Below are positions 19,672 through 27,080 of a stretch of DNA of 64,000 nt, in pieces. Below the pieces are notes generated by a model, which made no database searches, was not told where the DNA came from, and saw only the letters and a program-made list of their open reading frames with translations. The stretch's first letter is position 1; each line of letters starts with the position of its first letter. Source of the stretch: Phyllosticta citribraziliensis (taxonomy: Eukaryota); the NCBI RefSeq assembly GCF_038025025.1, contig NW_027117338.1:744001-808000 (forward strand), given 5' to 3'. Made by a program: the position numbers and the translations under genes.

Positions 19672-21834
19672 TCAGTCGATTTTGGCGGCAGCCAGCTTGG
19701 ACGACGGATTCGTGAGGACGTTGGAGAAGCGGAGGTTGCTTCGTTTGTACTTGCTGTGCTTGCGGAGGCGCTTGCGGGCGACCATGACGGGGACGCTGGA
19801 CTTGGTGACGAGGTAGTTGGAAAAGGAGCCGAGCAGCACGCTGTCTCATCGTTAGCATTCTTCTGCCGAATCTGGGGGGTGCACTCGAGGTCGGACGGGC
19901 TCCCCATACGGAGGAGGGTAAATGTAGTTAGAGAAGCGCCGAACCCTGACGTGTCATCAGACGCATGGGTGGAAAAGACAATTGACACTCACCCTTTCAG
20001 CGCGCTGCGACCCCGTGAGCCGAGAATCACCAGGGTCGGATCGAGAAAGTCGATCTACAATTCGAGTCAGCTCCATCTCCACAAATCTGAGCGGTCGACT
20101 TACCACTTCAGTAATCATGTGTTTGGGACTCTTGCAGTGAAAAACTTCTACCACAGCGCGGACTTGGAGCCTAGTCTTGCGCAGCAACGACACAATGCGG
20201 TCACTGACTTCGACCGTTGCATGCCAGCGCTCGCGCTCAGACTTGTCCATCTTGGAGTAGTCGGGTGGTTGCTCAGGCTCGTCGTTGAGGTTGACACTGT
20301 TGGCCAAAGGCGAAGGTCCTGCAAGCGTATTGGCTTTCGAGCGGCCATCGTCGACCAGCCTTTGGTCGTTTGATAGTGTCTTCATGAGCTTGGCCGTGTC
20401 CTGCATCATCTTGGCTCCTTCACCAATGCCGACCGAACCAGACTCGCCACCAGTGCCGGTCTCTTCGTCGACTGCGTACACTGCAAGCAGCGTATCACCA
20501 TCTCGCAAAACCGTGCCTATTGTCCACTCCAGAGCGTACGCGGCTTCTTCACTGAGATCGGTGGCAACAAGATACATGCGCTGGCGGCGAAGGCCCTTTT
20601 CGGCCTCTTGCTGCATGTCAGCATAGTCACCGCGGATGATTTGGCGAATGCAGCGATGTGCCTGGGGTGTGGACGTGATTGCTGACATGGACATGGCCAT
20701 GCGTTGGGCGTGCTTGATTTCGGAAATGTCCGCCTCGGTATCCGACGTCATTGGCGTAGATAAGCCAGAGCCGCCCGCGTCGAAGTTCGTGACTGGATGG
20801 ACTGCCTTTTTCTTTTGGCTCATCTTTTCACCATTGGGTCCGGTGACGGTGATGCTCGGCTCCAGCAGTGAACGGACCTTGTAGTCGCTCGTCATTCTTT
20901 TGCCTGGTAGTTGTGTCAGTGGCAGCAACGGCCTTTGGGCGGTCGAGATTGAGCGGTCGAGATACTCACGGTCCTCTTCAGCGGCAGCAAGTAAGCTCTT
21001 CGGTAGCTTATCCTTAATAGCATCTTTATCGGTCTCGTTTGAACTTCTTCTCCTCCTTCGGCCCCTACCCTCAAACTCGTCTGCATCAGAGCCCTCGCTC
21101 TCTTCGCTGCTTTCAAGCGCCTCTTCATCCGCATAATAATCCTTCTCCAGGCGGACTCCCCCGTCCGGCAACGGTGAGCCCTGTCGTTTTGACGACCCCA
21201 AATGGGCCAAGCTACCTCCGGACCGGGCCAGGGCCGCATCAGACAGTCTGCGGTAGGCACTGTTCATGTCGATGGATTTGCCCGAGTCAGTCACGTACTT
21301 TCTCGGATCCGACATGAGGGTGATATTGTTGGGAAATCTGCGAGCTCCAGGTGAGACGGAGCGGGCGCCGAGTCTGGATACGGGCGAAGAGGACTGATTT
21401 GTACCCAGCGGACTACGCAGCATGTTTGTGCTCTTGCTCTTCTTTCCTCCTTGAGAGACACGCTTCGGCAGAGCATGCGACTCTATCGACGGCAGCATGT
21501 CAAACTGATACGAGCTTTCGGGATCGCGACTGCCGGTCAACGGACTGCGTGTCCGTGACGACCCGGACGGCGAAGCTGTATCCAGCATGCTGCGGACCTG
21601 TCGAACCTCCCGAGCCTTTTGTCTTCGTTGTTCCTCCTCTTCCTGCTTCTTCTGCTCCGATGGAAGGATGAATTTGGCCGTGTGCTTGTCGCCAATGTCG
21701 AGCATACTCCGCACGGGTGACCTGGGAGCGCCGGGACTGCTGGCGCGGGAGTTTGCTTGTCGGCCGCGATTGATGCCCTCGAGTATGTCCATGACGGCGC
21801 GGCGCTCCTCGTCCATTGCTGATTCGAGAGACAT
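19672..21834 (-). CDS. Universal stress protein (Usp) domain protein with long disordered N-terminus
   Basis: YLVATDLSEEAAYALEWTIGTVLRDGDTLLAVYAVD; PKHMITEV|IDFLDPTLVILGSRGRSALKG|VLLGSFSNYLVTKSSVPVMVARK (Usp GSRG..GS motif). Stop TGA at 19672-19674; three introns. Confidence 0.93.
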
Positions 21835-23497
21835 GATGGCGGTGTTGGGTTGGGCGTGTCGAGGCTGTCGTGGCGGGGCAGGCGGCGGGAGGACAAATGG
21901 GACAAAGGCGGGGCACTGAGGTCGGCAGCGGGGCGACGTGAGATGGACAGGTGTGGTGGAGGAGAAGCGTGCGGTTGCGCAGGTTGGAGATGTCCGCAGG
22001 GATGGTCAACGGTCTTGATTGCGGGCGACGGCAATGATGTTCACGGAGCGGTCAAACCAGCCGAAGAGACCGGGGGGAGAGCCGAATGTGGAGAAATTAT
22101 GGGTCCAGCGAGCTGCCGAAATGTGTAAAATCTCAACCCCAGAGAATCGCGTGTTCTCGGGGGTGGGTATTTGAGGCTGGTGGCGTGAGGACGTTTGATC
22201 GAGCGGGAGAGCAGGCGGGTGAGGTGTCTTGTTGGTGGTTGTGGGTGCAAAGTCGAGGGTCAACCGCTGTCGGTGAAGAGCATCAAGTGGCCAGATTGGG
22301 CTCGGACAAACATGGAGGAGGGAGAGGAAGCGCGCGCTGTGGAGAGGCGAGACGTGGGCAAAAGTAGCCCATGTGCTGTGGTGGAGAGGGCGGAGTCGTT
22401 GTTCCTCAGGCGCGCCGCGTCGTTGGCTTGGCGGCAACGGAGAGAGCAGTTCCCAGTCGTCTCGCGTGCCCGAAACGTCGACTGACGAGAAAAGACACCA
22501 CCACCTCGCCCACAGCCACCCGACAGCCACCCCCAGCTTTTCGCCTTGGAAACCTTCGCCCACCCCACTCCCGTCGCCGTAACCTGCTGCGAACTCGATC
22601 ATGACCACTCTCTCTGCACGATGCGCCATCCTTGGCGCCCAGCTTTCCGCGCCTGCGCCCATCACATGCCCTTGTTCTGCAGGCTTTGTGGCGGAACGAC
22701 GGGCATCCATTCCTCTCCCACGCAATTGACGAATGGGAGCCGTCTCGCTCAGCAAGCTACACCTTGCTCAACCCGAAACCATTGGCGGCTAGCTCGCGAG
22801 CTGACAGATTGTCGTCCCGCTCTCACCACGGTGACTTTTGGCGCCAGCTCTTGTTCTGTGCCGGGCAGGCCGTGTGAGGGGCAAGCTACTTCTGCCCAGC
22901 ATCGTGACCAAACAAGCTTTCTGCCATTCTCAATCTCGCCCAGCCAAATCTTCGAGAAGACGGGCCTCGGGCGGAACAACCATGCCCATCTGCGAGACCA
23001 CCAACGCAACCAGTCGCGAGGCGCTCAGGACTGGAACATGGCCTACGCCACCTCACAGGGCAGGCCAAAGAGACGAACCAAGTCACAGTCGTCATGTCAG
23101 GCATCTCGCCGATCTGTAACGGGTTTCCCCACATGCGGCTGCGTAGGTAGGTGGGCTCCAGCCGCACGTGGCTCTCGCTCCCTTCCGCTGTGGAGACGTG
23201 GTGTGACGCTGCCCATTGCCATCATTCAAAATGTACACGATATACATACGTTGAGTGCCGAGATACTACCACCTATCTAGCTTGCAAAGACTGCAGCGAA
23301 CCAGCCATGAAAAGAAAAAGAGAGGCGTGACTAGAACAAGTCTACCCGAAAGATCTGACGATGCACCAAGAAAGCGGAGCCCGTGTACTCCATCTGATGC
23401 TGTTTGCATGACCCATCCATCGGCCTCTGGTCCAACGCCAAGCAGAAGAAAGTGAAAAATGATACCCAAGAAACCTTGAAAGAAAAAACCAATAAAT

Positions 23498-24517
23498 CTA
23501 GGTGCCCGTTGCACCCTCGTCTCCACCCACTGCGCCAGCTTCCCCGGATTGTCCATGCTCGTGGTCCAGCTCCCCATTACTTCCAACAACCTTTCCCACC
23601 AGGTCCAATCCATCCTCGAGTCTTCGTAGCAGTGTTTCCAGACCGCTGACAAGATCTCCCCCTGCTCCCCTGCGCACTTCGTCCACTGCTTCTTCCTCGA
23701 CCGATCCGCCCGTGCCTCTTCCTCCACTTCCTCGTGTTGCCATCTCCAGTCCTTCGACTCGCAACATGAGTGCCCCTGACCCACCAGCATCATCGCCCTC
23801 TTCTGTGAATGTAGGAGCAGCGCTGATGGACGTCGAGATGACCTGCCACTCGCGCGACAGGCTTTGTGCTTGTGTAATGGAGCGCGCGTCTGCCGACAAG
23901 TCGAGCACGACGTAGCGATCTTTTTGGCCCGGCACCGACGGTGGCAAGATGGGCTGTGGAGAGGCGGCAGCGGCAGGGTCAGACGACTCGTCGTCTTCCT
24001 CTTCGTTGCCGCGCGCGAACCCACTGCGATGGCGGCTCGTGTGGCGAGCGCTGGTCACGGCCGACGTATCTCCTAGCGCGCGCGCGAAAATGGCCGTATG
24101 AAGTTCGGGATCATCGTCGGCGAAGACGTAATGGACCGATGGATGCTCAGTATGGCCGGTTGAGGCGTCTTCGACGAGCGTGAAGAAGGGAGTGAAGTTG
24201 GCCGGTGGAAGGAGTGTTTGAGCTTCGGCGGCTGGATCTATTTGATCTGGATCGATGATGCGGTGTGCATCACGACCAGTCTCTTGGGTAGAATGTGGAG
24301 GTATGTAGTCAATGTCGAGTGTCTCAGCATCGCCTGCTGCGTGGCCGTAGTCGTGAGGATCATTCGAGTCGTCGGTGGAGGGGCCGGGGGCGGCTCGGTC
24401 GTGTGGAGTAGAGGACGAAGGCTGGGTCACCGGGTCGCTATGAGGAGCGGATTCCTGATGGACAGGCGATGGCGAGAGGGTGGCATGCGGGAAGCGTGGT
24501 GAGGTGCCCGCAGACAT
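23498..24517 (-). CDS. Intronless 339-aa protein; candidate divergent Atg31
   Basis: Long ORF with ordered blocks FFTLVED..HPSVHYVFADDD, RYVVLDLS..ITQAQSLSREWQV, LMLRVEG and a C-terminal amphipathic helix LETLLRRLEDGLDLVGKVV. The coding call is solid; the Atg31 identity is inference. Confidence 0.8.
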   Translation of the reverse strand: MSAGTSPRFPHATLSPSPVHQESAPHSDPVTQPSSSTPHDRAAPGPSTDDSNDPHDYGHAAGDAETLDIDYIPPHSTQETGRDAHRIIDPDQIDPAAEAQTLLPPANFTPFFTLVEDASTGHTEHPSVHYVFADDDPELHTAIFARALGDTSAVTSARHTSRHRSGFARGNEEEDDESSDPAAAASPQPILPPSVPGQKDRYVVLDLSADARSITQAQSLSREWQVISTSISAAPTFTEEGDDAGGSGALMLRVEGLEMATRGSGGRGTGGSVEEEAVDEVRRGAGGDLVSGLETLLRRLEDGLDLVGKVVGSNGELDHEHGQSGEAGAVGGDEGATGT

Positions 24518-25003
24518 TGTGGTGGGCGGTTTGGGAGCTTTCCTTGGAGCTGCAGCTTTATCGATAACTCGGCCGATGAGCGAGGGTGTTGGTCATGGTT
24601 TCTTTTAACACGTGATGGTGGGTTGCGGCGTCCGGGTCAAGGCTTGGTTTTGGGTTGATGTTGAAGAAGCGTGGGTGTGGAGGAGGAATGGATGGACTGA
24701 TGGTGACCTGGATGGATGAGCGTCAGTTCCAGGGTCTGGCCAGGCCCGCAATCCCTCGACGTCCGACTTGGCCCATCAGGAATCCTGTCAACGGAAGCAA
24801 GCGAGGTCATGCGCACCGGTTACATGATGTGGCTTGAGGCGAGCACGACGAGTCCAACGTAGAGGATGTTTTGCAAGCAGGCAGACGTTTAAAGCTGTAT
24901 CAAAACAAGCGACCAGGGGGTATAGTTATATCCATGTCCACCAACCTAACGCCAAGCCAAGCCAAAATGGTGCCTGTGGTTCTGCTCTGGTCTCATGCCT
25001 CGG

Positions 25004-25430
25004 TCATGCTTTGACGGTAAAGGCTGTACATGTTCCTTGGTGTCAGCTTCTACTGGTCCCACCCATGGCTGCAAGACGTGAACCTACGCTGTCGACACAT
25101 GGGGCATTTTGCCTGCGAAGCCTCTTGCTTGAGCCAGTCCTCGATGCAGTGCTGGGGTGGGTTAGGAGGACAGCGCGTCGCGAGTGAGCCAGGGTCTTAC
25201 CATGTGGAACGAGTGGTTGCATTGGCCCATGACTAGAATGAAAAAGAGGGTCAGGTCAGTCGGTCGTGTCTGGTGTTGTTTTCCTTACGCAGCGGGCAGC
25301 CGTCGCCGGGGAATTTGCACTTGGCACAGGTGCTGTCGTAGGGATTGCGACAGATGCCACACATGTCGTCCTGCGGCATGTCCCAGCGCCAGGCTGCGAC
25401 GGCGTTCCATTGCTTGATGGTGACCTTCAT
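25004..25430 (-). CDS. APC11: Anaphase-promoting complex subunit 11 (RING-H2)
   Basis: Four small exons give MKVTIKQWNAVAAWRWDMPQDDMCGICRNPYDSTCAKCKFPGDGCPL..MGQCNHSFHM|HCIEDWLKQEASQAKCPMCRQ|PFTVKA-TGA. Confidence 0.95.
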
Positions 25431-25949
25431 GGCGGTAGAGCGGAGACTGGAGGTGGCGGGGGTGAGAGTGGAGGAACTAAACCAAGGGCACATGTAGGTA
25501 AACACTCTCCCTCAATCGGGCCAGATGCCGAAGGCGGTCAGTCTCAGGTCAGAGCCTGGGGGAGCTCCAGCCCCCCTGCTATGACGCGATCCTCGACAGC
25601 AATCACCAAAAACAATGCAATCCCACTCTGTGCTGGGCCGTCATAAGAGAGCCGCTTCACTCAAGCTCTTCAGCTTCAGCTATAGCTGTCGTTCATCCAT
25701 CCCGTGCCATTGGCCAATTCAAGCTACATAGGTAATCGGCGCTTCTTGCGGTTGCCCCTCATTTTCAAAAAGGCAAGCTTCCTTCCTTCCTTCCTTCTCC
25801 GCCCGACTTTTCGCGACTTCCACAGCTCCGAAGCTAGGAGCTCCTGCCTCCGCTCTTTGCTTCCATAGCTTCCATTCATTCTTCACTCCACTCGCATCCT
25901 CTCTCCACTCACCCACAACGACTGTACCAACTTGAAACTAACCGCCAGA

Positions 25950-27080
25950 ATGGCCAGGCTGGCAATGCTCCGTTCGCTTCGTCCAACAACCAAACCCGCT
26001 GCTATCTCTTCCCCAATCCGCGTCATGAGCTCCTCTTACGGCACGCTCTCCAACTACCTCGTCACCCCCGCCGAGCTCAATGCTGCCCTGCAAAAGAACC
26101 TTCACAGCAAGCTTTCTACTGCCCCTAGAGTCGTCCCCCTTTGCGGCACATGGTTCCTGCCCAACGACCCGCAAAAACGCACCGGATGGCAGGAATTCAA
26201 GTCTTGTAGAATCCCCAAGGCTCGTTTCTTTGACCTCGATGCCGTAAAGGACCAGGACAGCCCTTACCCGCACATGCTCCCCAGCGCTCAGGACTTTGCA
26301 AAGGCCCTGGGTCAACTAGGCATTCGCCAGGACGACAGTGTGGTTGTTTACGACAGCAAAGAGGCCGGCATTTTTTCTGCCCCGCGCGTTGCTTGGACCC
26401 TGAAGGTCTTTGGCCATTCCAATGTCCATATTTTGAACAACTTTAAGCTATGGGTCGAGCAGGGCTACCCGACTGAATGGGGCGAGCCTGACAAGGTCCA
26501 AGAGGTTGCGTACCCCGTTCCCGAACTGGACAAGTCCAAAGTGGTCGACTTTGAATACGTCAAGGACCTTGCCAAGAAGCAGGCAGATCAAACCTCTCCG
26601 GCTATCCAGATTCTCGATGCCAGGAGCAAGGGCCGTTGGGAGGGTAAAGATCCCGAACCAAGACCAGGTGAGTTGCTCGGTTTGTATCCATCCCATGATG
26701 GTTGACGGTGTGGCCTTTACTGCTTGATAACGACGCGCCCACATGTTGAACTCTCCCCCGAGACGGTGGCTGATATGCTGGCAGGACTCTCCTCCGGACA
26801 TATTCCCTCTTCTAGCTCGCTTCCCGTTCCAGAGCTACTGGACCCCACCAACAAGACCTTCCTCCCCGCGGACGAACTCAAAGCTTTGCTCGCATCCAAG
26901 GGCGTCGACCCCTCCAAGCCGGTGATTAGCAGCTGCGGTACCGGCGTCACTGCTGCAGTCATTGACGCCGCCTTGGCTGAAGCTGGCTTCCCCGAGAAGA
27001 CTCGCCAGCTGTATGATGGTAGCTGGACTGAGTGGGCGCAGCGCGCAACCGAGGAGGAAGGCTTGATCGTCAAGGTCTAG
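25950..27080 (+). CDS. TUM1: 3-mercaptopyruvate/thiosulfate sulfurtransferase (tandem rhodanese)
   Basis: RIPKARFFDLD, PHMLPS, SAPRVAWT, ILDARSKGR, EPRPGLSSGHIP, active-site loop SCGTGVTA, LYDGSWTEW. One intron at ~26668-26785. Confidence 0.95.

Follow-up and report, generated by a model that had tools for sequence, protein, structure and literature searches.

A single-exon gene of Phyllosticta citribraziliensis, located at 23498..24517 on the minus strand, very probably encodes a diverged Atg31 (Cis1) orthologue of filamentous ascomycetes. The gene lies in a window of 64,000 nucleotides, the whole stretch of DNA that was analysed (GCF_038025025.1, contig NW_027117338.1, 744,001-808,000 of the forward strand), and all positions given here follow the numbering of this window. 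The identity, which a first-pass annotation of the sequence had put forward, is argued from the ranking of fold matches, from a sequence bridge through the relative P0407, from a complex model with Atg29, and from a heptad stripe on the last helix. It is supported by weak Pfam matches, by the top fold match and by the predicted Atg29 interface, with no single score being decisive. We regard the protein as belonging, in diverged form, to a known family, and not as a new kind of protein.

The open frame runs from an ATG to a TAG and encodes a protein of 339 aa (P0001) that has no Cys and whose start Met is nearly invariant in an alignment of 28 sequences. In three of the four sequencing runs used (X1, X2, X6, and X7, out of nine), unspliced contigs span most or all of the frame as one piece, and in run X1 the cover is split into several pieces. 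A transcript-like contig of run X2 (record 7; 23225..24670, minus strand) contains the whole frame together with 5' and 3' flanks, has no intron, ends downstream in a run of T, and shows 0 differences and 0 gaps; the RNA nature of this run was guessed, and spliced APC11 junctions are visible in it. RNA-seq runs X6 and X7 contributed unspliced contigs from a relative of about 90% identity, at 23209-24611 and at 23189-24368 with 24360-24632. By this evidence the gene has one exon and, to the extent that contigs can tell, is transcribed. Within the 31-Mb genome the only match to the protein core is its own locus, indicating a single copy.

The protein starts with an extension of 100 residues (24218..24517; this and the following segments are all on the minus strand), which is Ser/Pro/Asp-rich, poorly conserved and probably disordered, and includes 20 Ser/Thr and 4 SP/TP sites. 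Conservation in the family is limited to residues 108-117, 125-148, 201-237 and 249-256 and to the helix at 293-311, and five residues (P126, Y130, D135, W224, and G256) are invariant in the alignment of 148 family sequences. The block FTPFFTLVED (residues 108-117; 24167..24196) is the first strand block of the predicted beta-sandwich (model strand E17-22), with column conservation of 74-99% at most positions; it was missing from the first-pass annotation, and is conserved as strongly as the blocks noted there. The family signature HPSVHYVFADDD follows at residues 125-136 (24110..24145), lacks a strand in the model of the protein alone, and is where the Pfam ATG31 matches of relatives begin. 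Residues 137-196 (23930..24109) comprise a conserved helix (137-148, model H42-52) and, after it, an acidic insertion (151-196) that is variable and of low complexity; it is 46 aa long and modelled at pLDDT 52-58, and its length differs widely among relatives. One could speculate that this insertion and the Ser/Pro-rich N-terminus are regulatory, the latter possibly through phosphorylation.

The second half of the fold is contained in residues 201-233 (23819..23917), with three predicted strands (model E108-112, E119-124, and E129-138) that include YVVLDL at 202-207 and an S-L-S-x-x-W-Q motif, and in LMLRVEG at 250-256 (23750..23770), the last strand of the sandwich (model E155-163), where M251 is conserved in 98%, L252 in 97% and G256 in 100%. 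An additional helix (273-284) precedes the last one, an amphipathic helix at 288-311 (23585..23656; model H194-216) that is the putative Atg17-binding helix. In the latter, positions 293, 296, 297, 300, 304, 307, 310, and 311 are hydrophobic in 84-100% of the 148 members, and the remaining positions of the helix region (291-313) in at most 30%. Such a one-sided heptad stripe is as expected for the predicted Atg17-binding helix. The ordered blocks on which the first-pass annotation was built are thus present in the order it gave, from HPSVHYVFADDD at 125-136 through the spacer at 151-196, the block at 201-228 and LMLRVEG to the helix at 288-311, with two corrections: the block at 201-228 reads RYVVLDLSAD-ARS-ITQAQSLSREWQVIS, so that the gap drawn as two dots is of three residues (ARS), and the helix described as terminal still has a Gly/acidic tail of 27 residues behind it, and is not strictly terminal. 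These blocks go beyond chance, since they are the conserved columns of the 148-sequence alignment, between which the spacers are free to vary.

The closest named relatives are hypothetical proteins of Phyllosticta (73-92% identity). A profile of 28 sequences matched 675 clusters (at the 50% identity level) with E ≤ 0.001, and 577 with E ≤ 1e-10, of which the best 150 of the 675 were listed. The named members among the matches listed belong to the Dothideomycetes and the Eurotiomycetes (Aspergillus, Penicillium, Paecilomyces, and Thermomyces), and to Acarospora, Piccolia, Scytalidium, and Cryomyces. No Sordariomycete is found among the named members of the matches listed (best 150 of 675 clusters), which does not equal absence, and neither M. 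oryzae nor F. graminearum, the species in which absence of Atg31 is stated most explicitly, is among these named members. The database names of the members (at least 120 proteins) are 'hypothetical', 'uncharacterized', or that of an anaphase-promoting complex protein.

The link of this family to Atg31 at the sequence level is indirect. At E 10 the protein itself still matches no Pfam family, ATG31 was not matched when the first 28 relatives were scanned directly against Pfam, and no Atg31 chain was retrieved at E 10 in sequence and profile searches of the PDB performed with the protein, with alignments A1, A2, and A5, and with the relatives P0148 and P0407. Within the 148-sequence alignment, PF09795 (ATG31) is matched by 4 members at E ≤ 1 (best 0.0018) and not by the other 144, which makes it the Pfam family with most matches, the unrelated T4_Cef having one fewer (3/148). 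A further 10 members were picked as divergent or compact, and 3 of them match ATG31. The relative P0407 matches positions 39-143 of the 156-position Pfam ATG31 model with E 3.3e-5 and 24.4 bits (cut-off 25), and is connected both to the P. citribraziliensis protein (BLASTP E 2e-21, 31% identity) and to the family profile (E 2.8e-28 at a database size of 5.8e9). Apart from P0407, six members match PF09795 weakly and in the same register, the ATG31 matches starting at, or close to, the HP-x-V/I-H-Y-x-F-x-DDD block and most of them reaching the S-L-S-x-x-W block or further. The profile comparison with ATG31 therefore gave matches that are weak and all below the curated cut-off, but consistent in register, and this register is the one that had been proposed in the first-pass annotation relative to yeast Atg31.

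Taken together, the sequences indicate remote homology to PF09795 through P0407 as an intermediate. No family member reaches the 25-bit cut-off, and the P. citribraziliensis protein is not a PF09795 member by Pfam's threshold, so that orthology rests on the bridge sequence, the fold, the predicted Atg29 interface, and gene content. In the ESM Atlas the top named cluster for the protein core (23573-24220, minus strand) was Cis1p/PF09795 (0.88, 186 features), which we take as a lead only, and with the whole protein ATG31 was found only at rank 8 (0.83), under the lead threshold. The second cluster retrieved with the core is a 170-aa hypothetical protein with 438 members, mostly from Basidiomycota (0.85, 180 features), which is possibly a basidiomycete Atg31, again as a lead only.

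The core (residues 96-315) was modelled with AlphaFold2 without templates, from an alignment of family members only. The resulting model (pLDDT 79.7, pTM 0.69) presents, in order, a strand, a short strand, an extended segment without strand (124-135), and a helix; after a disordered insertion come four strands, and then two helices. Using Foldseek, the top 5 of 350,542 PDB chains were chains B/E of Atg17-Atg31-Atg29 structures (E 0.012-0.073, with the next chain at 0.57), which we take to be the Atg31 subunit from chain length, as the entry titles name the complex only. With VIA-align, 4hpq_B came first of 48,161 representatives (Z 5.8, rmsd 3.9, 109/115 residues), in an alignment that extends over model range 14-216 and chain residues 11-145 and includes the last helix, and all but one of the lower rows shown align merely the last 40-50 residues; the values against 4p1w_B were Z 6.1, rmsd 4.2, and 118/135 residues. 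A template-free model (pLDDT 83.5) of the compact relative P0148, of 188 aa and 29% identical, retrieved the same five top chains with Foldseek (E 0.008-0.14), and aligned with Z 8.0, rmsd 3.2, and 111/115 residues in VIA-align, where the next row has Z 5.2 over 48 helix residues.

All these fold scores are modest, as the Foldseek E-values are above 0.001, the TM to target is 0.36-0.46, models lacking a clear match often reach a best Z of 7-8, and the structure-based identity to Atg31 is only 11-16%. Their weight comes from the near-complete coverage of the chain, and from the fact that Atg31 had been named before the searches were made. The Foldseek comparison that the first-pass annotation had suggested places Atg31 chains on top for two independent models, with single scores that are not decisive, and the predicted topology, a beta-sandwich followed by a C-terminal helix, is that of Atg31.

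We also modelled the core in complex with the 93-aa N-domain of Atg29 from the same genome, without using alignments. The predicted interface clearly exceeds the controls, with an ipSAE of 0.77 versus 0.00-0.01 for three control pairs, and with runs that share at least 87% of contacts and a partner pLDDT of at least 62. Calibrated on microbial pairs, the ipSAE mark is passed by 51 of 78 solved versus 2 of 108 mismatched ones; on eukaryotic pairs, it is passed by 71 of 105 that are solved (39 of 65 among those with no similar complex of earlier date) versus 2 of 126 unrelated ones. In the lowest-error contacts, residues 9-14 of the Atg29 domain sit between residues 127-132 and 202-207 of the Atg31-like protein. 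For yeast, passages of PMC4506457 describe an eight-stranded sandwich with one strand contributed by Atg29, and the insertion predicted here is of the same kind as this strand complementation. The predicted pairing would also explain why HPSVHYVFADDD, the most conserved motif, is left without a strand when the protein is modelled alone. As similar complexes have been solved, the complex score shows likeness to Atg31, and not binding by the P. citribraziliensis copy, and it may reflect memory of those solved complexes.

The protein thus resembles the Atg31/Cis1 of budding yeasts (PF09795; 4HPQ, 4P1W, and 5JHF, chains B/E) in the predicted sandwich plus C-terminal helix, with 109-118 residues aligned, in the predicted complementation by an Atg29 strand, in being single copy, and in the presence of Atg17 and Atg29 in the same genome. 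In contrast, besides its low identity and its score below the Pfam cut-off, it is 339 aa long versus ~146 numbered crystal residues, has the 100-aa N-terminal extension, the 46-aa acidic insertion, the helix at 273-284 and the acidic tail, and co-occurs with Atg101. Another factor that can be set beside the family is Atg28, which has reportedly been proposed as a stand-in for Atg29/Atg31. It is described, in passages of PMC3320016, as an Atg17-associated autophagy factor of Komagataella (Pichia) pastoris, a coiled-coil pexophagy protein. Atg101 (PF07855; fission yeast and animals) is likewise an accessory subunit of the Atg1/ULK1 complex, but differs in having a HORMA fold and in binding Atg13 (passages of PMC4506457 and PMC4824606), is encoded by a separate gene, and was not among the fold matches of the Atg31-like protein.

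The genome contains genes for the expected partners. Atg29 (contig C6:1248742-1248906; ATG29_N, E 1.7e-23) and Atg17 (contig C6:1379221-1380470; E 3.7e-72) are about 130 kb apart, Atg13 is found on contig C8 (E 2.7e-64) and Atg101 on contig C12 (415013-415486; PF07855, E 1.3e-48), and a second ATG17-like gene on contig C9, with a frame of 1318 aa, is read as Atg11. A search of the genome with the PF09795 profile gave no match, and the control matched nowhere either, so that a second copy is not excluded by this search. The situation supposed in the first-pass annotation, with Atg17 and Atg29 present and no recognised Atg31, is therefore the one encountered: both genes were found, and Pfam finds no other Atg31. 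We noted in passing that several Aspergillus Atg29 proteins (P0311, P0329, P0332, and P0358) are misnamed 'multidomain presynaptic cytomatrix related protein' at NCBI.

From these data the most likely mode of action can be drawn. Residues ~100-258 are predicted to fold into a beta-sandwich that is incomplete and interrupted by long disordered insertions, and that the N-terminal strand of Atg29 would complete by slotting between 127-132 and 202-207, giving an obligate Atg29-Atg31 pair. Yeast Atg31 does not fold without Atg29 and connects Atg29 to Atg17 (passages of PMC4506457). By analogy with the yeast structures, helix 288-311 would pack against the Atg17 crescent on its concave side and tether Atg29 to Atg17, a contact that would stabilise the curved 2:2:2 scaffold. 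On starvation, this scaffold would bind Atg13-Atg1, recruit Atg9 vesicles and start the phagophore, as can be deduced from passages of PMC4506457 and PMC9643702. At the level of gene content, Atg13 and Atg101 are encoded as well, so this fungus possesses the components of an Atg1 complex in which the Atg29-Atg31 clamp and Atg101 would occur together.

The best of the competing explanations, which we consider improbable, is that the protein is an Atg31 homologue that still partners Atg29, but whose role has drifted: it would either not clamp Atg17, or be dispensable in starvation autophagy since Atg101 does the essential job, and the pair would serve selective autophagy via Atg11, or some other function. 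Such a drift would fit the presence of Atg101 in the genome, the large insertions relative to yeast Atg31, and the report that deletion of ATG29 in M. oryzae leaves pathogenicity unaffected, with ATG29 listed among cargo-dependent genes (passages of PMC12089313). However, the hydrophobic stripe of the C-terminal helix is strict over 148 members and falls within the structural alignment to Atg31, and Atg17 is intact in the genome, which both speak against such a drift.

The genomic neighbourhood bears on two further explanations. In tandem with the Atg31-like gene, and upstream of it, is APC11 (25004..25430, minus strand; four exons, Pfam zf-ANAPC11), and divergent from the latter is a rhodanese-domain gene (25951..27080, plus strand, ends approximate; Pfam Rhodanese on 25869-26702). 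The synteny set comprised the best 80 of 134 metagenome loci, which collapse to 52 distinct groups. The arrangement of a rhodanese gene divergent from APC11 and the Atg31-like gene is present in 17 of the 24 groups with at least 3 kb upstream, the other 7 having neither neighbour, and APC11 is the neighbour in 20 of the 30 groups with at least 1.6 kb upstream. This conserved adjacency accounts for the merged gene models, and for the APC11 name on members that are not fused (P0059, P0242, and P0258). Gene neighbourhood in fungi need not mean shared function. In the rhodanese gene itself, a non-canonical GC-AG intron (25773-25957, plus strand) at the 5' end is seen in three of four runs and removes the in-frame ATG at 25951, so that an N-terminal leader, possibly mitochondrial, could vary with splicing, although a leader function is a guess. 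On the downstream side of the Atg31-like gene, the neighbour (19957-22005, minus strand) has an N-terminal part that is long and of low complexity, matches the universal stress protein family (Usp) weakly, with E 0.0007 and under the cut-off, and was beside the Atg31-like gene in none of the 80 loci.

Given that APC11 and the rhodanese gene adjoin the Atg31-like gene in 17 of the 24 distinct loci with at least 3 kb upstream, that direct sequence matches are not significant and that the Z-scores are middling, it could be asked whether this is an unrelated ascomycete protein, with a small beta-sandwich plus helix that is like Atg31 by chance, and which perhaps works with APC11 and the rhodanese. 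We consider this very unlikely, as Atg31 came first in four fold searches with two models and with 95% of the chain covered, P0407 bridges the family to PF09795, the Atg29 model scores far above its three control pairs, and the gene block is missing in 7 of 24 loci.

The boundary between APC11 and the Atg31-like gene was also considered. The APC11 stop near 25004 precedes the Atg31-like ATG by 486 nt, an interval with six upstream ATGs, and one X1 contig has a GT-AG intron (24708-24816, minus strand) that bridges APC11 into the 5' end of the Atg31-like gene, which suggests read-through or a long (spliced) UTR, and not an in-frame fusion. A RING-H2 domain (PF12861) in the same reading frame was rejected, given that the protein has no Cys and that APC11 is a separate gene with its own stop. 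The frame could still be taken for the C-terminal end of a larger fusion protein with APC11, since PF12861 is found on 4 of 120 listed family proteins, zf-ANAPC11 is matched by 2 of 148 alignment members and the X1 contig links the two genes through that intron, but we reject this as hardly credible, because spliced APC11 terminates ahead of the ATG, the two genes are on separate contigs in three of four runs, the fused database models have joints at differing places with the RING cut differently, and most family members begin at their own Met.

The identification of the protein as Atg31 has to be seen against a literature in which this subunit is stated to be absent, as in passages on filamentous fungi generally (PMC6550541), on F. 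graminearum (PMC5594004), on Paracoccidioides and A. fumigatus (PMC6107164), on Cryptococcus (PMC6988817), and on M. oryzae (PMC9643702), where it is hypothesised that Atg101 replaces Atg31. The remark in the first-pass annotation that Atg31 usually goes unannotated in filamentous ascomycetes agrees with the statements in PMC6550541, PMC5594004, PMC6107164, and PMC9643702. Other autophagy literature, in the excerpts available, mentions Atg31 for yeast only, and the titles and abstract openings of open-access papers name no Atg31 of a filamentous fungus; such an assignment may exist in orthology databases, in supplementary tables of orthologues or in papers behind subscription. Passages of PMC4506457 suggest that species keep either Atg101 or Atg29/Atg31, and an excerpt of one review calls their apparent mutual exclusion a riddle. 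The M. oryzae review (PMC9643702), in the passages available, already has Atg29 alongside Atg101. The coexistence of these two proteins was therefore known, and what is added here is the Atg31-like subunit.

Naming this family closes the published Atg31 gap in moulds and supplies a specific gene, and it corrects the mis-annotation of members filed as hypothetical proteins or as APC subunit 11. In our view, the balance tilts towards filamentous ascomycetes building a six-subunit Atg1 initiation complex, with both the Atg17-Atg31-Atg29 clamp and Atg101 on Atg13. The clamp and Atg101 would then be separate modules, not alternatives, that the ancestor shared by moulds and budding yeasts already had side by side, one being lost in budding yeast and the other in fission yeast. 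Should the basidiomycete cluster of 170 aa be Atg31 as well, both modules were possibly present already in the ancestor of all Dikarya. A genome in which Atg17, Atg29, the Atg31-like protein, Atg13, and Atg101 are found together makes the idea of replacement by Atg101 directly testable and, if the six-subunit arrangement is true, moulds would be a natural system for separating the roles of the Atg101 and Atg29-Atg31 modules.
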